Assembly: GCA_034520965.1 (NCBI GenBank)
Contig: JAXHMY010000002.1
Location: 32,001 to 96,000 of the forward strand
Direction of reading: 5' to 3'
From: Spirochaetia bacterium
GTDB taxonomy: Bacteria > Spirochaetota > Spirochaetia > DSM-16054 > Sediminispirochaetaceae
Length of the DNA stretch: 64,000 nucleotides
Part shown: positions 13,427 through 53,500 of the stretch, one piece after another
Numbering within the stretch: the stretch's first letter is position 1
Layout: each line of letters opens with the position of its first letter
Translations under genes and position numbers: made by a program
The notes under the pieces: generated by a model
The model's database searches: none
Seen by the model: only the letters and a program-made list of their open reading frames with translations
What the model was told of the DNA's origin: nothing

Positions 13427-15799
13427 ATGCACCAACACACAATCAATGTTTTAGAATTTGAAAAAATTAGATCGGAGCTGTTAGAGTATTGTATCAGCGA
13501 GAATGGCCGTCATACGGTAAGCTTGCAAGGCTTTTATTATTCCCAGTCGGCTATACAGCCGTTACAGCTGAAGGTTGAACAAGCCCGTGAGTTTATGGAG
13601 CGCGAAGAGTTCCCATCCTTTGAGTTTCCTGAACTTGAGTCTGAGCTGCATGAGATCTCTACTGAGGGTGCCGTCCTTGAGGGAGAAGAGCTCATCCGGT
13701 TTGCCCGCTATTTTAATTCGTCCCACCGGCTTTCTGCTTACTTGCGGGGTGCCTCCGAATACGGATACCAGGATATAGCCGCCCACGGTGAGCAGATTGG
13801 TGATTTCAGGGACAGCGCAAAGGCAATTACTGCAGTTCTCAACCCAGATGGGAGTGTGAAAGATAGTCATCCTGAGCTGCGGAAACAGCGTGCACACATG
13901 GCCCGCCTGCGAAACGAGCTCAATCGGGCCGCTCAGAGCTACCTGCAGCAGAACTCCGACCGCTGGCAAAGTGATGTCCCGACACAGCGGGACGGCCGGA
14001 TTGTCCTGCCCCTGAAAGCCCAGTATCAGAACATGGTTTCCGGTGTCATTCATTACAGCTCTGCCCGTGGAGCCACGGTGTATATCGAGCCGCCGGAAAT
14101 AATGACCAAAAACAACGACATTGCCCTGGTTGAACAAGAAATTCGTGAAATTATTCTGTCGATACTGCGCGACCTTACAAAATCCGTGGCTTCCCGCCGA
14201 ACCGAAATAGAGCAGCTTATAGAGGCGGTGACGGAAATCGACAGTTTCATATGCCGGGCCGCATATGCACGGGTACACAATTGTGTACGCGCCAATTACC
14301 GGGAGCGCGGGTTTAAGCTTAAGCGCGCCCGTCACCCCCTGCTCCGCGACAGCGCGGTTCCGATCGACATAGAAACCTCACAAGATATACAGAGTCTTAT
14401 CATTAGCGGACCCAATGCGGGGGGGAAAACGGTTACCTTAAAAACTGTAGGACTTCTCTCGCTGATGAATCAATTCGGTCTGCAGATTCCCGCAGATGAA
14501 GGCACGGAGTTGGCGGTTTTTAACGGTATCTATGCAGACATAGGTGATGAACAGTCGATCGAAGGTTCACTTTCCACCTTTTCCGGACATATGACAAAGA
14601 TCGGAGAGATGCTGGAGCATGCTGATGTACATGCCTTAGCCCTGCTGGATGAACTCGGGTCGGGTACCGATCCGGGCGAAGGGGCTACTTTGGCAATGGC
14701 TGTGCTGGATGAGTTTTTAAAACGCGGAGCAACCACCCTGGCAACCTCGCACCACGGGCTGCTGAAAAATTACGGGTATACCACCCCCAGGGTGCAGAAT
14801 GCCTCAATGGACTTCGATACCTCAACCTTAACACCCAATTATAAAGTTGTGGTCGGGCTTCCCGGCGAAAGTCATGCCCTGGATATTGCCACTCGCAGCG
14901 GGCTGCCGAGTAATGTGATAAAGGCCGCCCGGGGCTACTTGTCAAGTGAGAGCGGTCAAGTCAGCGAGATGATTAAGGAGCTCGAGCGGAGACAGACCGA
15001 GTTTAAGCGACATGAAGAGTCCTTAAAGCAGCGCGAGGGCAGCTTGCAAGGACAAATCAAAGAGCACGATATGGCGGCACTTCGTCTGCGACAGCGCGAA
15101 CACCAGCTTAAGCAGAGCGGGTACGGTGAGCTGAACAAGTTTCTACGCGAGGCTCGGCAGGAGCTTGAAAACTTGGTGCACCAATTAAAAAGCGGCGAAA
15201 ACGTATCTAAAGAAGATACCAAACGGGTAAAAAAGTTTATTCGCAGGGTAGAGGAACGGGAGAAACAAGAAAAAGAGCAGGTTGAACAGGAGGAAATCGA
15301 GTTTGCCTCCAGTGACACCTACGAGTTTTCGCCGGGTATGCAGGTTATTACCGGACCGGGTCGACGGAGGGGCACCGTAATACGGCGGGCCAAGCAAGGG
15401 TATTGGCTAGTCGAGGTAGGAGCGATGAAAATCACCCTCCCCGAGAGAGATCTTATGCCTGCAGAAAGCCCTGCAGAAAGCTCTGAACAGAACAAAAAGC
15501 AGGGAACCCCGCGGTATGGGTATACCAGCGAATCGGGAACCCAGCCGGCCGCCTTCTCACTGGATGTGCGGGGAGAGCGCCTGGACGAGGCCTTGGACCG
15601 TGTAAATCGTCAGCTTGACAATGCAACCCTGGCCAACTTATATGAATTTGAGATTATTCACGGAAAGGGCGAGGGCATCCTGCAAACCGGTGTGCAGCGA
15701 TTACTTCAGGAGTCTCCGCAGGTCGAAGAGTTTTACTTTTCACGTCCTGAGCAGGGCGGAACCGGTAAAACTATTGTAAAATTAAAGCAGCAATTCTAA
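13427..15799 (+). CDS. mutS2: Endonuclease MutS2
   Basis: Motifs SGPNAGGKT, DIGDEQS, SLSTFS and DELGSGTDP; coiled coil; C-terminal Smr domain (IIHGKGEG). Confidence 0.95.
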   Translation: MHQHTINVLEFEKIRSELLEYCISENGRHTVSLQGFYYSQSAIQPLQLKVEQAREFMEREEFPSFEFPELESELHEISTEGAVLEGEELIRFARYFNSSHRLSAYLRGASEYGYQDIAAHGEQIGDFRDSAKAITAVLNPDGSVKDSHPELRKQRAHMARLRNELNRAAQSYLQQNSDRWQSDVPTQRDGRIVLPLKAQYQNMVSGVIHYSSARGATVYIEPPEIMTKNNDIALVEQEIREIILSILRDLTKSVASRRTEIEQLIEAVTEIDSFICRAAYARVHNCVRANYRERGFKLKRARHPLLRDSAVPIDIETSQDIQSLIISGPNAGGKTVTLKTVGLLSLMNQFGLQIPADEGTELAVFNGIYADIGDEQSIEGSLSTFSGHMTKIGEMLEHADVHALALLDELGSGTDPGEGATLAMAVLDEFLKRGATTLATSHHGLLKNYGYTTPRVQNASMDFDTSTLTPNYKVVVGLPGESHALDIATRSGLPSNVIKAARGYLSSESGQVSEMIKELERRQTEFKRHEESLKQREGSLQGQIKEHDMAALRLRQREHQLKQSGYGELNKFLREARQELENLVHQLKSGENVSKEDTKRVKKFIRRVEEREKQEKEQVEQEEIEFASSDTYEFSPGMQVITGPGRRRGTVIRRAKQGYWLVEVGAMKITLPERDLMPAESPAESSEQNKKQGTPRYGYTSESGTQPAAFSLDVRGERLDEALDRVNRQLDNATLANLYEFEIIHGKGEGILQTGVQRLLQESPQVEEFYFSRPEQGGTGKTIVKLKQQF

Positions 15800-15924
15800 A
15801 TTTGAAAATTTTAAAAAAATTTTCAAATTTAGAATGCTCACATTTTGTTTAACATAAGTAACTTATCTTAAAGGGTTTGAGGTTATTCTAATTTTGGAAG
15901 TCAAAAGACTTCCAAAATTAGAAT
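15793..15924. repeat. Pair of AT-rich palindromes (43 bp and 40 bp, 49-bp spacer)
   Basis: ATTCTAAATTTGAAAATTTT-AAA-AAAATTTTCAAATTTAGAAT (15793-15835) and ATTCTAATTTTGGAAGTC-AAAA-GACTTCCAAAATTAGAAT (15885-15924). Confidence 0.9.
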
Positions 15925-16021
15925 TCCTGAAATTAAAGCACTAATTGTTGCGTATTCATTAGATAATATCTACGATTAACAGTAACAGTAACAGTACGTA
16001 CTGTGATTGGAGCGAAAAGGT

Positions 16022-35790: not shown

Positions 35791-36581
35791 GTACCCCTTC
35801 TTTTTTCAAAAAGTTGTTTGGAATCTCAGGGCAGCAAAGCGATACTCAAGGCGATGACTACGATAGTCTAAATTTTGAAGAACAGGATATGATTCGAGGG
35901 GTAGTAACCCTTTCAGATACTACAGTGAAAGAGGTGATTGTCCCACGTATAGATGTCGAGTTCGTAGCAATTGAATCAACCTTTAACGAGCTGATTGATA
36001 CCCTGGGCGAGGGGGGCTACTCAAGGTTTCCCGTATACAAAGACACAATTGATAATGTGGTTGGTATCCTTTATGTAAAGGATCTGCTGAAACAGGTGAA
36101 GAGCCAGGAAGATTTCAGTGTCGAAAAAATAATTAGACGCCCCTATTTTGTACCGGAAAGTAAGCGCCTTGATTCTCTGCTGCGTGAGTTTAAACGGAGA
36201 AAGGTTCATATTGCCGTGGCAGTAGACGAGTATGGCGGGGTGTCGGGCATTGTGTGCTTAGAAGACATCATTGAAGAGATAGTGGGTGACATACAGGATG
36301 AGTTTGACAACGAAGTGGAAGACATTCTAGAGATCGGAGAGGGAACGTATTTGTGTGATGCCAGAGTTGATATCGAAGATCTAAATGAAAAACTCAGCCT
36401 AATGCTTCCGGAGGAAGATTTTGATACCTTGGGAGGCTTTGTCTTCGACATGTTTGGAAAAATTCCCGTGAAGTACGAAAAAGTTAAATACAGTGGTATC
36501 GATTTTATCATTCAGGAAATGGATGGGCATAAAATAAAAACTGTAAAATTAGTACTTAAGGATAGCAACAGTGCCGCATAG
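35787..36581 (+). CDS. CBS/CorC-HlyC domain protein
   Basis: Motifs YSRFPVY, VDEYGGVSG, EDIIEEIVGDI and DTLGG. Confidence 0.9.
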   Translation: MSTPSFFKKLFGISGQQSDTQGDDYDSLNFEEQDMIRGVVTLSDTTVKEVIVPRIDVEFVAIESTFNELIDTLGEGGYSRFPVYKDTIDNVVGILYVKDLLKQVKSQEDFSVEKIIRRPYFVPESKRLDSLLREFKRRKVHIAVAVDEYGGVSGIVCLEDIIEEIVGDIQDEFDNEVEDILEIGEGTYLCDARVDIEDLNEKLSLMLPEEDFDTLGGFVFDMFGKIPVKYEKVKYSGIDFIIQEMDGHKIKTVKLVLKDSNSAA

Positions 36582-38603
36582 ATGCGGAAAAAAAAGAAAG
36601 ATAGGGAGTGCTCTGAGTCTCTTAATCCTTAGTTGGATATTGTTAGTGTCGGCTGTGAATCCGGCGGTTGACCTGTATCAGCAGGGTGAAGAACGGCTTC
36701 AATCCGGCGATGTGTACGGGGCAATTGATCTTTTCAAAGAATCTCTTTCTTATAATGCGGATTATGTTGATCCGTTATACGGCCTGGGACAAGCTTATTT
36801 TAAATTGGAAGAATATGAGCAGGCCCTTGTGTATATCCAGCAAGCACGAAGGTTTGACAGAAACAATACCAGCATCACCGCACTTGAAGGAAGAATTAAT
36901 ACCGGTCTGGGAAAGTATTCGGAAGCGGAGAGAATTTTTGATAAAATTCTTGAAAAAGAGCCCCACAATCTTGATGCCCAATTTGGAATGGCCGAGCTGC
37001 AAGCCGCGATGGGGAGCGTCGAAAATGCGATCGCCGGGTATCGAAAGGCCTTGGAATCGGATCCATACAACCGCCGCGGTTTGTTATCTGCAGCGCTCTT
37101 GTACAGCGCCCAGAACAACCTTCAGGAGGCTGCCGAGCTAATACAAACGGCAGTCGACAGCTATCCGGAGGATCCTCGGGTGCACTCTATTGCCGCTGAG
37201 TACTACTTTAAAAGGGATAATCCCCGTAAAGCTGAAGAGCATGCCCGTCAAGCACTTCAATTGTATTCAGAATCTGAAGATGCAATATACGTGCTTATAC
37301 GAATTCTGTTCGCACAAAACAGATTCGCCGATGCCATAGAAGCGGTAGAAAAAAATATAAATATAGATCGCGATAAGCCGCTTTTATGGTACCTACGGGC
37401 AAAGGCGTATTGGAAAACCGGAGATCAGCAACGGGCTTTGGAGAGCTTTTATACCGCCTTAAGCCTTAAACCAAGTGATGAAATTACAAGAATCGCTCTA
37501 GAAGAGTTTCTTATGGACCGTTTTGCAGGGGATTCCCAAGAGAGAAAAAAGGCCGCTGATATAAGGTTTGAGTACGGTGCTTCCTACGAACGGGATAACC
37601 GAATTGAACTTGCCCGACAAGAATACCGTCGGGGCCTGATGCTTCACCCCTACAGCCGTGAAGGACGGCAAATGTATGCGGCCACCTTCAAACGGTCCGA
37701 TAACATTGGGAAATACCTTTCTATTTTGAAAGTACTTGAGACCGAGGGAAACACAAGCCAAGAGATACAAGATGAAATTGAGATTTACACAAGCTTACGC
37801 GAAGAGAGTATTGCCCAATCGTGGGATGTCGATCAGTTTGCCATAGATCGCTATCGCTATAAGATAGCACTTTTTACCAATAATAATCAGTCCCAGGTAA
37901 TTCATCTAAAGGCGGAAGAATATTTAACAAGTTACATGCAGGGAATACTCCAGGGCAATGAACATCTTGATATCGTAGATACCGGTTCCGTTGAATCCTT
38001 TGCTGAGGCCTTTAGAAGGGCACGAGAAACAGATATCGATTATTTTATAGTTACTACTTATCGAGAGGGTGAAAGGGCCTTCAAAGGCTCTGCAACAGTG
38101 TATAACGGGTCTACCGGAACCGTTATAAAAACTTTTAATAGTTTGCGCACTGGAAATAGACGAGTCAGTCAAGCTCTCATACGAATCGCCGGGACATTCT
38201 CTGATAGCTTACCACTGCGGGGCAGGATTTACCGAAGACAAAATAACACGGTTTTACTTGATGTAGGGATTTCCAAGGAGTTTCTCCTGACGACCGGTTT
38301 AATGTCATTCGCGGAGAAATTTTAGAGCTTGCGGATAACCAATTTGCCTTAGAGTACAATCAGCGTTATATTCTAGGTTACATAGAGATAAGCAATGTAG
38401 ATGATCTTCTTTCTGTGGGCCAAGTGAGCACAGATCAATTTTTCGATTTAATAAATCCCGGGGATGCGGTGATTCCAGTTAACAGCATCAGCGAAGAAGC
38501 AGGGGCTGAGGGAAATGCAGGGGCTGCCCAAGAGGGTACTGATCTTCGTGAATCTCCCGTAATTCCCTCGGAGATCTATAAATCGCTGCTCGAGGTTGAG
38601 TGA
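36571..38603 (+). CDS. Exported TPR protein, frameshift near 38270
   Basis: Many TPR repeats. An alternative frame from about 38270 (FQGVSPDDRFNVIRG...) is open and runs into ORF 38415-38603. Confidence 0.8.
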
Positions 38604-38639
38604 TTCAGCTATTCTGATATGTTGTGACCCTTGTCAAGT

Positions 38640-38910
38640 ATTCTATAGTAAAAGTTTATAGTACCCCCTTCTTTATAAGACCGAGAGGAGAAAAAGATAG
38701 AGGAATACATGCAACCGTCGATGTACAGACTGATATTCGCGGATTGGTTACCTGCAGTGCAATGTAATCGTCGGGAGCTTGCCTCTGTCTCAATTCAAGG
38801 ATTCCTCCTACCAAAAAGAGGGCCTTCAGAATAGCTCGAGGATTCTCCTTCGCTTCTTCTCGTATTCCTCTATCCATTCTACCCCTCGGTTTCAAAACTC
38901 AGTTAAACCT
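38640..38910 (-). ncRNA. Putative bridge/seek RNA region of the IS1111-type element (boundaries approximate)
   Basis: 3' non-coding region containing segments that match the target and donor junctions (38826-38836, 38786-38795, 38730-38736). Confidence 0.7.
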
Positions 38911-40008
38911 CTACGTTGTTTGTTCTCTCATTATTCCCCAAATAAAACCGCAAAGCTCACGTGCAACTGCCGTAGCAACCTTCTGTGAAGGTTTTCCTGT
39001 AAACAGAAGGTGCTGATATCGCCGCGAAAGTCTTTTCCCTGCTTTATCGGCATACGCTCTTGCCTGAGGATCTACTTCTCGTCTTCGTTTTATCAGTCGC
39101 TTTGAGGAGGGATCATAGGTGCGACAATGCCAGGCACTTTCTACCAACAGGCGCCTCAAACGCTTTATTTCCTGATTTTGTAATACCGTTCTGACGACGA
39201 CGTTCTCCACTGGAGTGTTCAGCCGGTACCAAACCAAGATAACTCATGAACTGCGAGGGCTTGGCAAATCGCCGAAAATCACTTATTTCGGCAATGATTG
39301 ATAACGCGGTAAAGGTTCCAATCCCCTTAATGGCCATCAGCCTTTTCACTTTTCCCTATAGCGCCCTTCAGAGGCAAGGGCTTCAATGCGCTGGTCGATT
39401 CGTTTAATATTTTCAGTGATGTAGTCCAGATGCCCCAGGTACTCCTTTACAGTCTCTTTCTGCAATGAGTTGAGCTCTGCGATGGCTTTCTTAATCCACA
39501 GTCGGTGTTTTCCTGTCCAGATTATCCCCATCACGGTAGATCAGACCATGACGAAGCAGAAGACTGAGAATTTTTCTGCTTGTAGCGTCTCTGCTCGTCT
39601 TTGTAATCATCCCTGACGTGCAGAAACTCACGCACCGCCTCATCGGCTCTGGTGGGAATGTGAACCCCTGTCAACTGTCCGGAACGCAAATTACGGGCAA
39701 GCATGTCGGCGTCCCGTTTGTCGGTTTTTATTCGCTCTGATGGTTTTTTTGGAATCAGTCCCGGGGCTGCAACAAGACAGGCAATGCCCATACCTTCGAG
39801 CATCCGATAGGTACTGTAACCGCTTGGCCCTGCTTCATAGCAGCACAAAGCTCACCCTTTTCCTGGAGCTTCTTAAATATTTGCGCAGCTCGCTTTCCCT
39901 GTTTTTCTTCTGAACGACTATCGATGGGACCTGTTCGCCATTCTTATACCCGACGATGAATACCGTCTCCTTGTGGACATCCATTCCTACATAAATTACA
40001 CTGTTCAT
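38911..40008 (-). CDS. IS110-family recombinase/transposase with multiple frameshifts
   Basis: RBS GGAGG, then MNSVIYVGMDVHK, CYEAGP, KTDKRDA, GIGTFTA, SYLGLVPAEHSSG (catalytic Ser region), RRLLVESAW and AVAREL, spread over four ORF fragments plus an unlisted N-terminal frame. Confidence 0.9.
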
Positions 40009-40106
40009 AGTGGCCTCCTGTTTGTATGTGGCGTGTTTGCCATTGTGTTTTTACCATTTTGCAGGCTAATCCACGATTTTGCAAACACGGGGGTCACTTC
40101 ATATTG

Positions 40107-40236
40107 TCTCATTTTGGATAGTGTAATTACACTATCCAAAATGAGAATGCCTCCACACGTTGAGATATATAAAAATTTGCAAAGAAATTGATGCGAATTC
40201 TAAATTTGGAAGTCAAAAGACTTCCAAATTTAGAAT
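40107..40236. repeat. Second pair of AT-rich palindromes (48-bp spacer); the first is interrupted at its left tip by the IS
   Basis: TCTCATTTTGGATAGTGTAA|TTACACTATCCAAAATGAGA (40107-40146, perfect) and ATTCTAAATTTGGAAGTC-AAAA-GACTTCCAAATTTAGAAT (40197-40236). Confidence 0.9.
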
Positions 40237-40252
40237 CGCTGTGAGTGATTTA

Positions 40253-40281
40253 TTGACATATATTTCCCTATATCATATAGT
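40253..40281 (+). promoter_or_regulatory. sigma70-type promoter of the gap operon
   Basis: TTGACA (40253-40258), 17-nt spacer, TATAGT (40276-40281). Confidence 0.75.
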
Positions 40282-40310
40282 TTAGTCTCACAAAAAGATT
40301 TATAAGCTAG

Positions 40311-41321
<1,011 letters not shown>

Positions 41322-50511: not shown

Positions 50512-53500
50512 ATGAACATCCCAAATATGGACAAATCACAAAAAATAGCGGTTCTATTTTTTCTCCTGTTGCTTGGAATGGTGCACTTGTATGCCCAAGA
50601 AAACACGGTAACTCCGACACCCTCCCCAGGTGCTTTTTCTGAAGCATTGTATGTGCATATCGAATCGAACCTAGATAAACCGGTTCAGTACCGTTTCAGT
50701 AAGAGCAGCGACGACACCTGGGTGGACTACACCCAGGCTCTTCGCCTCTCTGCACTATCAGGGGAAGAACGAACTTTTACTCTGCAAGTACGCGTGCAGA
50801 ATACGGGTACTGACACGGTAGAGAGCTTTCAGTACGTAATCGACCGGCGTATGCCGAATGAGCCGGAAATAGAGATACGTCGGCAAGACGCGGGATACTT
50901 TGTTAATTTTTCAATTGATGAAAACCAAGCTCAGGTAAAATACTGGCTTTCTAGTTTTGAACAGCCCGAATTCAAAGCCTGGAACAGAAAAATGCTTGCA
51001 GCCCCGCAGAAAAGTGTAGTAAAAGCATACAGCGTCGACGAAGCCGGCAACCGCAGCCGGGTGGTTACTAAAAAACTTCCGGAGCTGCATCCCTGCAGAA
51101 GCTCCTCAGAGATTGATATTCCATCCCCGGTAGCCGGAACTTTTGTAAATGCACAATGGCTTATTATCCCGAACGCCAACTGTTTTGAATGGATACGCTA
51201 CAGCCTGGAAACAGAAACCTCCCGCAGCGATGAAACAGCTTATACTGCCCCTGTTCTCATTCGGACAATCGGTACTATTACCCTTAGGGTTCAGGCAAAG
51301 CCTTATTACCAGGAGCAGTTGTCCGAGAAAAAACTGGAATTCACCATTACCAAGCCGAAAGATTCGATTCTGAATGCCTTTTCAGCATCAGCAACAAAAA
51401 CCAGCGGGCCGGTCGAAGATCTACGTTCCTTTCCTTTACCCTCTGCTGAAAAGGGAGTGGAGCTTTACTACAGTTTAGAGGATACCCCCGTCAACCCGAA
51501 TCATCCCCAACTTGTTTCTCCTATACCGGTCAAACTATCCGAGGGTATGAAAAATTTTTTAGCCTATCGTATTGGAGCGTATCTTCCGAATGAGGATCGC
51601 ATGCTGCAGTATCGTTTTTTTTATATCATCGATGAAAGAATACCTCCGAATCCGCAATTTCGCTTATCTGATACACTCCCGTTTCGTTCAAAGCTTCAAG
51701 TAGCATTAGAAGCAGGAAAGGGGGCTGAAATTTATTACACCACCGACGGATCTACCCCCGACCGGTTCTCCAATCGGTATGCAGGGCCTTTTAACATTAC
51801 CTCCGATGGAAACTCGGATTTGGGAATAATACCAGTACAAGCTGTAGCTCGCTATCCGAACGGAAATAGCAGTGAGATTGTACGAAAACAGCTGCCCTAT
51901 GATAGAAGAGCGCCTTCCCCCCCAAGTTATGATATCCTTAAGGTAGATAAGTATGGTGCTGATATTCAGGTAGATCACCCGGACCCTTCTATGGAAATTG
52001 TGTATGCAGTGGGTTACGGGAATACTCCTCCTTTACAGATAAACCGAAACTCCCCCGTAATATCAAGAAATTTAAGAGTAGATTTTCCCTATGGGTTTCA
52101 GGGAAAAGCCTTTGTGCGCTTTGCGGCAAGGGATAAAGCCGGAAATATTTCGACCGCTACGGCTACTGCACGGGTTGAAGTCGACTCGGTACCGCCGGAA
52201 GCTCCATCCATACGACGGGATCAGCAAAAACTCATGATAACAGGTTCTCACGATCTGTTTTACCGTGTCCAAGGCACAAATGATGGGTTTAAAGAGTATA
52301 CCGGGCCTATCGATTTGAACGTCGAAGATAAGCTCCGGCAAAAGTTTGAAGTAGCCGCATACGCAGAAGATTCGAGGAATAACCGATCAATAAGTACGGA
52401 GAGAGTGTTTTTTATAGATACCAGAACTCCTAAACCGCCCCAGATTATCAGCAATGTTGACAGCTCCATAGTCAATCGTCCCATTCTGGTTCGTTGTATT
52501 GGCCCATACGCCGATTCAGTTGTCTATTATAAACTGTTCAGAGTAGCAAAAGGAGACAACCTGCCCGAGGTTGCTGAAGATTCAAAACCCGGTTTTTCGG
52601 ATAGTTTATATAGTGAACCTATCCAACTCAGTGGTGCCGAGGATCGGGAAGTTCTCTATGTCGTAAGAGCGCGCAGCTATCTGCCTTCCGCAGATGTATG
52701 GAGCCCTGTAACCAGCAGTTCATTCACCATAGACAGAAAAACACCTGAAGCGGTCAAGCTTGGGTCGATTATAGGCAAAACAAGACTTTTCTCTGAAGCT
52801 GTCACAGTACAGGCTGAAGCAGCCTCAGAGGAAGAGGAAAGCTGGATATATGTAGCTGAAGAAGAACCTACTGCTGCTGATATAAGCATCGAGAAAATAC
52901 TCTCGGAAGGGGTTCCCCTGTCACGGGGAGTCCTAGTTGAAGGCGTTGAGGGAGAAGAAAAAAAGTACCGGATCCATAGCGCCACCGTGGACAAAGCCGG
53001 GAACAGTGACCGGAGCAAAACTGTTGAACTTACGCTCGATCGTAAAAAGCCGGAGATACCCCGGTTAGAAGGTTTACCGGCTGAAGCAGATACAAATAAG
53101 CAGGTTAAAATTTTTGCTCCCGACGATTATCAACATAAAATAATTTATGAACTGGCCGTAAACCAGGGCCTGCCGCAAGTACCCACGGCTGATTCATCGG
53201 TTCTAAATGATTCCCCCTTAGTTTTAAGCGGCACTCCTGAAAATGACGGCGGAATAAACCATTATGCAATTTCCTTCCGAGGTTTAGATCAGGCTGGTAA
53301 TATGTCGCCGGTGAAAACTGAACACGTAAGAATCTCTCAGATTAAGCCACAGCCACCACAGATTGTTGTGGAGCATATTGGCAAACAGCAATTTTTGATT
53401 CAAATAGATGCGGAACATGAAATGTCCATCTATGCAAAAATAAACGACGCAAAAATAAACGACGCAAAAATAAACGACGCAAAAATAAACGACGCAAACT

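Follow-up and report, generated by a model that had tools for sequence, protein, structure and literature searches.

An IS110-family insertion sequence of IS1111-type layout inside the terminal inverted repeat of a miniature transposable element in a Spirochaetia genome, most likely placed by a predicted guide RNA

What determines the landing site of an insertion sequence (IS) is the question raised by a locus in a 64,000-nucleotide stretch of a Spirochaetia bacterium genome (assembly GCA_034520965.1, contig JAXHMY010000002.1, positions 32,001 to 96,000), hereafter called the window, in which an IS110-family element interrupts a short palindromic repeat just downstream of a gene. The initial annotation of this DNA, made from the sequence alone, had described the element as RNA-programmed to home into a dispersed REP-like (repetitive extragenic palindromic) family. 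In our analysis the first part of that proposal held and the second did not: the guides of the element change together with the flanks among 15 relatives, but the repeat is the terminal inverted repeat (TIR) of a MITE, a miniature transposable element bounded by inverted repeats. We conclude, with a probability of about 0.85, that an IS110-family element with IS1111 layout lies 10 bp inside the left TIR of a MITE and was most likely placed there by its predicted guide RNA. This reading is built on direct observation of the anatomy of the locus, the empty locus in sister genomes, the sites of the IS copies, the joint change of guides and flanks, and the compensatory changes in the stems of the predicted RNA. 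The coordinates of all features are collected in Table 1.

Joining positions 38611-38615 to 40110-40148 by script gave 44 nt identical to their own reverse complement (ATTCTCATTTTGGATAGTGTAA followed by TTACACTATCCAAAATGAGAAT), which bears out the perfect palindrome obtained in the initial annotation by removing 38616-40109, together with its position 7 bp past the TGA stop (38601-38603) of the upstream open reading frame (ORF). The insertion had been placed in the tip of this palindrome, a description that stands if the tip is the outer end and fails if it is the hairpin loop: the insertion point is not in the loop but 5 bp inward from the palindrome's outer end and 10 bp inward from the terminus of the MITE. 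Because TCT precedes both junctions, the IS boundary can be slid by up to 3 bp; by comparison with relatives, we set the shared core at 2 bp, which read CT on the + strand and AG on that of the transposase. The palindromes claimed as relatives of the interrupted one were all found, namely a second perfect palindrome at 40197-40236, with 18-nt arms that are 100% complementary, and two further ones at 15793 and 15885, the three having ATTCTnAnTTTGxA in common. The other family ends are likewise present, as AGAATCGCT at 40232-40240 and AGCAATTCT at 15789-15797. This resemblance is far above chance, and the repeat occurs at 73 loci of the genome.

The repeat is a MITE of 142 bp and not a free-standing REP sequence, the palindrome being its first arm. 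Specifically, the right flank (40110-40330) gave 116 BLAST matches in the genome, and the alignment of 24 of them, each of at least 90 nt, together with their flanks outlined a unit of about 142 bp bordered in every case by its own direct 9-mer. The order within the unit is CAGC[T/A]ATTCT, palindrome 1, spacer, palindrome 2 and AGAATCGCTG, and the two ends are inverted repeats of each other. A census of the genome, with one natural uninterrupted copy as query, returned 73 loci, 47 near full length and 26 partial (23 with the right end only, one with the left end only and two internal). The 9-mers flanking the 47 near-full copies agree at 9/9 positions in 35 copies, at 8/9 in three and at 1-7 of 9 in the other nine, and they differ from copy to copy. 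The family is therefore what the term MITE describes: small, non-coding, multicopy units with TIRs and a target-site duplication of fixed length that varies among copies. Both palindromes at 15793 and 15885 are located inside a second MITE (15788-15929), and positions 40110-40241 are identical at 131/132 to an IS-free copy of the family at C2:217479-217610.

The same locus was then compared in sister genomes. In G003 and G002 it reads ...CTCGAGATAGAGTGATT directly followed by TATTGACA..., with neither MITE nor IS, and both AGAGTGATT and the duplication 9-mer TGAGTGATT are single. In G007 (L006, G007:C6 ~51760-51790) a short scar, AGAGTGATT-CCTG-GAGTGATT, takes their place, and contigs of runs X3, X6, X18 and X19 join 38606 to 40243 with the same three extra letters (CTG). 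The scar is likely the trace of cut-and-paste excision, which would mean that the MITE was once present there and mobile. As to the empty allele proposed earlier as a check, the sister genomes do not show the 44-bp palindrome, a result explained by the absence of the whole MITE.

Two elements emerged when the genome was scanned for like ends paired at a distance of 300-5,000 bp and bordered by a 9-bp duplication, the MITE::IS composite of the window and a 1,697-bp element (G000:C1:856108-857804, G000 being this genome; L045 501-2197), with ends AAGCAATTCGAAATGTGA and CAGCAATGCGAAAAGTGA and the duplication GATTTAGCA. The latter has only the first 9-10 end bases in common with the window MITE. 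It contains an ORF of 335 aa, with 44-47% identity to proteins annotated in some records as ISNCY family transposase, then a stop and, still in that frame, a further 103 open codons that contain SRWKIEN; Pfam and NCBIfam searches gave no significant family for the ORF or its continuation. The 1,697-bp element is a candidate autonomous relative of the MITEs, and the MITE superfamily is probably tied to ISNCY-like elements.

These data also bear on the origin of the repeat as a REP or BIME (bacterial interspersed mosaic element) unit spread by a RAYT (REP-associated tyrosine transposase, of the Y1 type). Such an origin would account for the perfect palindromes and the mostly intergenic location of the units, and the genome does contain one PF01797 match (C1:1113541-1113864, 57.1 bits). 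The nearest end-like match among those listed, however, is about 90 kb away from it, at variance with a REP/RAYT pairing, and site-specific direct 9-bp repeats flank 38 of the 47 near-full copies; target duplications are not known for REP units. Because of the TIRs, the 9-bp duplications, the empty site and the scar in the sister genomes, and the ISNCY-like element with related ends and a 9-bp duplication of its own, we assign the family to a MITE superfamily and consider a REP origin very improbable. The PF01797 match itself (G000:C1:1113541-1113864) is in a 395-codon open frame near a contig end. Rfam offered no family that would account for the region: up to E = 1, the two palindromes were matched by microRNA models alone, with 22-27 bits against cut-offs of 74-90.

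The genome contains three full copies of the IS, which we call c1 (window), c2 (contig C3) and c3 (contig C9), plus one 154-bp fragment. Both c1 and c3 are inserted at the same base of a MITE left end and point the same way with respect to the MITE; they are flanked by CAGCTA.TCT on one side and CATTTTGGATAG on the other. The c2 copy is outside any MITE, between ACTATTCT and CATTTGAGG, in the 3' end of a gene, 14 bp ahead of what is predicted to be the native stop of a 433-aa ORF. Hence the expectation that the flanks of other copies would rebuild a palindrome fails for c2, and yet its site is related: read in the transposase orientation, the MITE site and the c2 site have the 12 contiguous bases AAATGAGAATAG in common. 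Since c2 shares these bases outside the palindrome, the IS is site-specific and the palindrome itself is not required; judging from these sites, the target is the MITE terminal repeat and not the palindrome as such. The same comparison disposes of the idea that the palindrome is a part of the IS whose ends had been mis-set, so that no separate repeat family would exist. Although the palindrome adjoins the IS in both c1 and c3, it is missing at c2, 47 near-full MITE copies carry no IS, and relatives with the same IS ends have unrelated flanks; the c2 flanks, the relatives' flanks and the IS-free MITEs refute this explanation, to which we attach practically no probability.

It could also be argued that homing took place only once and that c3 derives from a MITE::IS composite moved or duplicated as a unit, which would make the position shared by c1 and c3 uninformative on repeated targeting. 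The composite in the window keeps both outer MITE termini and a perfect 9-bp duplication and is in principle mobilisable, and on one side the flanks of c1 and c3 have about 130 bp in common. Against this, the MITE part of c1 is identical at 131/132 positions to an IS-free copy but at only 125/132 to that of c3, and c3 has no target duplication, its flanks matching at 2/9. Moreover, targeting is supported independently of c3 by c2, with its 12-nt site outside any MITE, and by four to five related IS lineages that in other genomes stand at the equivalent base of like ends and have matching guides. We thus regard a single homing event as unlikely.

The assignment of the element was based on its gene and on its layout. 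In the window copy the transposase is represented by pieces of one minus-strand gene across four frames. The intact copy, c2, with a 365-aa ORF, has an N-terminal DEDD/RuvC-like domain, PF01548 (8.8e-13, residues 7-152), and a C-terminal IS116/IS110/IS902 domain, PF02371 (3.3e-26, residues 222-304), and reached 252.6 bits, against a cut-off of 140, with NCBIfam NF033542, 'IS110 family RNA-guided transposase'. As in other IS110 elements, there is a short core without a longer target duplication, and insertion occurs in one orientation at a specific site. The IS1111 layout is seen in the non-coding lengths, with 295 nt following the transposase gene and about 100 nt preceding it, in the 14-nt subterminal repeats conserved in the relatives (about 11-13 bp in the IS1111 group), and in the C-terminal motif GL-P----S(T)G, which reads GLVPAEHSSG in this transposase. 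The terminal extensions beyond the 14-nt repeat are 3-5 nt on the left and 1-3 nt on the right, depending on where the AG core is placed. The closest named transposase is that of ISEc45 (44% identity), and identity to IS4321-family proteins, which belong to the bona fide IS1111 group, is about 26.6%. Because of this low identity, and of a length of 365 aa that is outside the 330-350 aa quoted for the IS1111 group, we speak of an IS1111-type layout: by its arrangement the element is of IS1111 type, and membership of the IS1111 clade is not claimed.

The 3' non-coding region was found to contain two segments matching the occupied site. The putative 5' guide, AGCUAUUCU, matches at 9/9 positions and is placed 5' of AAUUGAG, the putative 3' guide, which matches at 6/7, and the two matches overlap at the AG. 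The 9/9 agreement reported earlier for the occupied end is therefore confirmed and turns out to be longer still, as the inverted repeat I9 pairs 38826-38836 with the left junction (38607-38617) at 11/11 positions.

If these segments specify the site, they should change with the flanks among related elements. Using the intact protein as query, we detected relatives in 26 of 301 genomes of the class at E <= 1e-40; a separate search of genome contigs gave the single locus L014 (71% identity), with no recognisable IS ends. Of 30 loci, 21 have both conserved ends, ACAATATGAAGTG...CACAnCATATC, 1,200-2,000 bp apart, and were used further, the other nine being set aside; 20 elements entered the alignment, L028 being identical to L026. 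In 20 of the 21 elements AG stands on either side (the exception, L038, has A-T), and the flanks differ. The aligned 3' regions show two variable segments in conserved surroundings, and in four element families the right flank recurs, reverse-complemented, as the 5' guide, and the left flank recurs unchanged as the 3' guide. Specifically, the 5' guide pairs at 9/9 in the own element (AGCUAUUCU with right flank AGAATAGCT), in that of G104 (AGCAAUUCU with AGAATTGCT) and in that of G052 (again AGCUAUUCU with AGAATAGCT), at 8/9 plus a G-T pair in that of G234 (AGCGGUUCU with AGAACTGCT) and at 8/9 in that of G164 (UAAAAAACU with AGTTTTTTT).

Over 15 elements, the 5' guide agrees with its own right flank at a mean of 6.93/9 positions, compared with 4.23/9 in mismatched pairings, and none of 20,000 permutations reached the observed sum, the same register shift of one to two bases being allowed for true and false pairings. 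This count leaves out L024, whose flank ends at the locus end, L026 and L028, in which this part is deleted, and the second copies L041-L043. For the 3' guide, compared with the left flanks of 16 elements in a fixed register, the means are 5.4/7 and 3.7/7, two of the seven bases being the shared AG, and again 0/20,000 permutations equalled the observed value.

The sites of the relatives fit this picture. The G234 element is inside a MITE of about 120 bp, with flanks that agree at 9/9 for one copy and, for the other, after a shift of one base, at the site GGTCCAAAATG-AG-AACTGCTG; those of G104, G052 and G002/G036 are at AG-AAT[T/A]GCT ends of hairpin units without a clear duplication. Other relatives occupy unrelated sites, a different palindrome in G125 and non-palindromic sequences in G108, G164, G066 and others.

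A secondary structure was drawn by eye on an alignment of 15 elements (A3, from which the poorly aligned L033 was left out). It sets the two guides opposite one another within an internal loop, which has closing stems on one side and a distal hairpin on the other. Its 17 pairs are formed in 81.5% of the cells, as against 68.2 +/- 1.5 in shuffled alignments (0/500), and its covariation score is 0.425, as against 0.191 after shuffling (0/500) and 0.04-0.22 with slid partners; the sequences being related, the shuffle figures are not to be taken as probabilities. Changes on both sides were observed in 10 of the 17 pairs. RNAalifold, run on a 200-column alignment (A2), returned only nine pairs and missed the guide loop, in part owing to a 5' portion that is out of register. 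We take the figures for the guide-loop structure as support, and not as proof, of the predicted RNA.

An improbable alternative is that the site is recognised without a guide RNA, by the transposase protein or through the shape of a DNA hairpin, the matches in the non-coding region being leftovers of earlier insertions. The target in the window is indeed inside a perfect palindrome, and the same holds for G125, where the palindrome is ACCTCTAAAAACCC...GGGGGTTTTAGAGGT. However, c2 and the relatives in G108, G164 and G066 are at non-palindromic sites, the guide segments follow unrelated flanks in 15 elements while the transposase-binding ends are constant, and guide-dependence has been demonstrated experimentally for IS1111- and IS110-type elements (PMC11187229). 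We give recognition without a guide only a slim chance.

With the guides in hand, the supply of landing sites could be counted. For the 14-mer that the guides define, AATTG-AG-AATAGCT, the genome contains no exact site and 24 sites with one mismatch, where about 1.07 would be expected from base composition; by sequence context, 22 of the 24 are MITE ends. Because the guides spell the MITE terminal repeat, the dozens of MITE ends are, on this prediction, the main landing sites of the IS. The exact 14-mer used by c1 is also present at six unoccupied MITE ends and one other site. The earlier view that the repeat family offers the element many safe intergenic landing sites is hence supported by the 22 near-perfect sites, and weakened by the low occupancy and by the fact that one of the three insertions is in a gene.

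A number of points weigh against placement by a guide RNA, or against the assignment of the element. At least six MITE ends identical to the c1 site are unoccupied, from which it follows that the activity of the IS is low or recent. There are just three IS copies, two of which, c1 and c3, may lack independence as events. Between the 3' guide and the occupied site one base does not match, and the transposase of the window copy is broken as assembled. The protein stands apart from the IS1111 group both in its identity to the IS4321 family and in its length, as given above. As regards the RNA, the alignment columns for the guides were picked once the window guides had been seen, the covariation was measured on related sequences, and the contigs from RNA libraries that cover the region (X17, 38666-38908; X18, 38633-38845; depth 2.7-5.7) belong to a variant about 95% alike, in libraries of a kind that may contain DNA.

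All together, these data are compatible with the following mechanism. The non-coding region would be transcribed and processed into an RNA that binds the transposase. Its 5' guide, AGCUAUUCU, would pair with the top strand of the core and right target (AG-AATAGCT) and its 3' guide, AAUUGAG, with the bottom strand of the left target and core (AAATG-AG), and a second loop, with AUAUCAG and its neighbours, would hold the joined IS ends. Recombination would then occur at the shared AG/CT core, leaving no target duplication. In the excised circle, whose end-to-end junction is expected to read ...CATATC-AG-ACAATATG..., the TTGACA at 38632-38637 would serve as the -35 box of a promoter completed by GACAAT (TTGACA-N17-GACAAT).

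A wider reading, which we put forward tentatively and rate as possible though doubtful, is that an RNA-guided IS clade has long been parasitic on one MITE/ISNCY-like superfamily across several families of the class, re-tuning a single guide base; the re-tuned base would, as part of this same doubtful proposal, follow the variable fifth base of the prey TIR, CAGC[T/A/G]ATTCT. The pairs behind it are the own element, those of G104, G234 (in a MITE with a 9/9 duplication) and G052 (with the guide of the own element), and the AGCGAUUCU variant of runs X3, X17 and X18, which would fit the other end of the MITE. If this reading were true, the IS, by splitting the outer 10 bp from the repeat, may either disable its prey or ride along as a composite.

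Some further observations concern variants and relatives of the element. A variant about 95% alike, present in runs X3, X17 and X18, carries C in place of A at 38833, which turns the guide into AGCGAUUCU, the perfect complement of the MITE right terminal repeat and possibly a natural re-targeting by one base; the contigs of this variant also lack three bases at 38803, in the distal hairpin. The relative in G125 (L017, L041), 53% identical and present in six copies, is inserted in the unrelated palindromic repeat ACCTCTAAAAACCC-TAAATT-GGGGGTTTTAGAGGT, a few bases from its outer end, with the same geometry as in the window. L026 (G036:C81) and L028 (G002:C32) seem to be one and the same contig piece in genomes placed in different families; they carry a decayed IS relative (70% aa identity) with the target-binding part deleted, within a 50-bp hairpin unit, CAGCGATTC...GAGAATTGCTG, and may reflect shared or mis-binned DNA or a recent transfer. 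The solo piece of the IS in the genome itself (L003, G000:C2:545716-545869; 154 bp, 98% identical) runs from the last part of the transposase gene into the beginning of the non-coding region and includes the 5' guide; by its coordinates it lacks the 3' guide and the donor part, and it is probably a remnant.

As far as the state of the copies is concerned, c1 and c2 are told apart by one substitution and six indels of 1 bp, of which four fall in homopolymer runs, and c3 is 96.9% identical, with many indels. Contigs of runs X1 and X2 have the c2-like reading at all six indel places, and their depth is 12-15 over the IS, compared with 4 on the left flank; this fits three collapsed copies without a c1-type variant, with the limit that contigs drop minority variants. 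The frameshifts of c1 may accordingly be read as assembly errors. The X1 and X2 contigs contained neither a joint across the IS at this locus nor a circle junction, although contigs cannot show absence.

Upstream of the MITE, the TPR-repeat (tetratricopeptide repeat) gene at 36571-38603 is split into an ORF of 584 aa and one of 62 aa in another frame, while its G007 orthologue is a single open frame to the same stop; together with the six IS indels, this suggests single-base indel errors in the assembly. Downstream, the right end of the MITE, with palindrome 2, is 78 bp upstream of the start codon (40320) of the gene for GAPDH (glyceraldehyde-3-phosphate dehydrogenase), so MITE and IS now stand between GAPDH and the upstream gene. 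A role of the palindromes as terminators or as hairpins regulating GAPDH was also considered as a possibility. Scar-allele contigs from RNA libraries run from the end of the upstream gene into GAPDH.

Table 1. Features of the interrupted MITE, the IS and the predicted guide RNA (positions within the window).
Feature	Position	Strand	Remarks
MITE, IS-interrupted	38606-40241		TIRs CAGCnATTCT...AGAATCGCTG; 9-bp target duplication TGAGTGATT
Left 9-bp target-site duplication	38597..38605	.	TGAGTGATT; includes the TGA of the upstream gene; same 9-mer at 40242-40250
Left TIR, outer 10 bp	38606..38615	+	CAGCTATTCT; severed from the remaining MITE by the IS
IS110-family, IS1111-type IS	38616..40109	-	1,494 bp with one 2-bp core copy; conserved body 38616-40107
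3' non-coding region, 295 nt	38616..38910	-	predicted source of guide (seek/bridge) RNA; fold z = -3.28; aligns with the non-coding regions of relatives
Subterminal inverted repeat, transposase-distal arm	38617..38630	.	I6: 14 nt, 86% (12/14) complementary with 40091-40104
TTGACA, candidate -35 box near right end	38632..38637	-	exact in 16/20 aligned right ends
Candidate donor guide AUAUCAG	38730..38736	-	equals IS right end + core; same place in all four elements compared; conserved in alignment
Predicted target-binding module	38772..38852	-	closing stems, internal loop with two guides, distal hairpin (alignment A3)
3' guide (predicted), identical to top strand	38789..38795	-	RNA AAUUGAG; left target AAATGAG 6/7; MITE variant CAATTTGG 7/7
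5' guide (predicted), complementary to top strand	38828..38836	-	RNA AGCUAUUCU pairs with AGAATAGCT, core + outer MITE terminus
DEDD transposase gene	38911..40008	-	broken as assembled, by six 1-bp indels when compared with c2 (contig C3), the intact 365-aa copy
Subterminal inverted repeat, transposase-proximal arm	40091..40104	.	I6
Remaining MITE, 132 bp	40110..40241	+	remainder of palindrome 1 (to 40148), spacer, palindrome 2 (40197-40236), right TIR AGAATCGCTG
Right 9-bp target-site duplication	40242..40250	.	TGAGTGATT
Second MITE, same superfamily, other subfamily	15788..15929 (C2:47788-47929)	+	9-bp duplication AAATTAAAG, 9/9

What this locus adds is a documented natural series of guide/target pairs for IS1111-type recombinases from a little-studied bacterial class, including single-base re-targeting among close variants, and one more case of a preference for landing in the ends of other transposons. 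The consequence for annotation is that the palindromes found here are to be treated as parts of a MITE with 9-bp duplications.

Among known systems, IS4321 and IS5075 reportedly target the terminal repeats of Tn21-family transposons and are a direct precedent. They resemble the element described here in that an IS of the RNA-guided type is found, at a single position and with a single orientation, in another transposon's terminal repeat; they differ in that the prey is a large Tn3-family transposon instead of a MITE, and transposase identity is about 26.6% over 76% of the query.

In IS1111-type elements, a seekRNA is produced from the 3' non-coding region; in it the top-strand match comes first (5'), followed by the bottom-strand match, and both overlap in the target (PMC11187229). 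Judged by its sequence, the two-guide 3' region of our element has this seekRNA or bridge-RNA design. Like ISEc11, ISPa11 and ISKpn4 (Siddiquee et al. 2024, PMC11187229) and IS621 with its bridge RNA (PMC11208158), it has a 3' non-coding region, subterminal repeats, and two short opposite-strand target matches that overlap at the insertion point, the top-strand match being 5', and changes in these segments naturally re-target close relatives. In contrast to those systems, the RNA is here predicted from sequence, and the extensions (3-5 and 1-3 nt, according to the placing of the core) seem to depart from the 7-bp left and 3-bp right extensions, and the 365-aa transposase departs from the 330-350 aa, given for the IS1111 group, which also has the GL-P----S(T)G motif (PMC11187229).

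ISEc45 (locus L046), whose transposase is the nearest named one in the plasmid collection (44% identity over 98% of the protein), resembles our element in its 3' non-coding region, in a TTGACA close to the right end and in its short subterminal repeats (TGACCTTT/AAAGGTCA), with different end sequences. In the titles and abstracts among the matches listed, no work on the ISEc45 group or its target was apparent, and neither 'MITE' nor 'ISEc45' occurs in the text of PMC11187229.

Insertion into palindromic repeats is known from ISPa11, which targets REPs (PMC11187229), and from ISPpu9 of Pseudomonas putida, which targets REP sequences and has extra solo copies of its small-RNA gene (PMC12288879). 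The latter is an IS110-family element in palindromic repeats with a solo non-coding piece elsewhere, as is ours (C2:545716-545869); here, however, that piece is without the 3' guide and the donor part and looks like a remnant.

The closest parallel, which emerged from the literature on IS110/IS1111 elements and MITEs as a direct precedent, is found in Coxiella burnetii RSA 493, where 20 of 21 IS1111 copies are in QMITE2, a MITE with mostly 9-bp direct repeats (Wachter et al. 2018, PMC5896051). The novelty suggested in the initial annotation is thus not borne out. In both cases copies of an IS110/IS1111-kind element are at one place in a small palindrome-bearing MITE, the IS-free MITEs representing uninterrupted targets (PMC5896051). 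The differences are that the present host belongs to another phylum, that the MITE sequence and the target are unrelated, that two of three copies are in MITEs here as against 20 of 21 there, and that the site is here in the TIR itself. In conclusion, the locus is a further example of a known behaviour and involves no new mechanism, carried by an element and a MITE of a different phylum.

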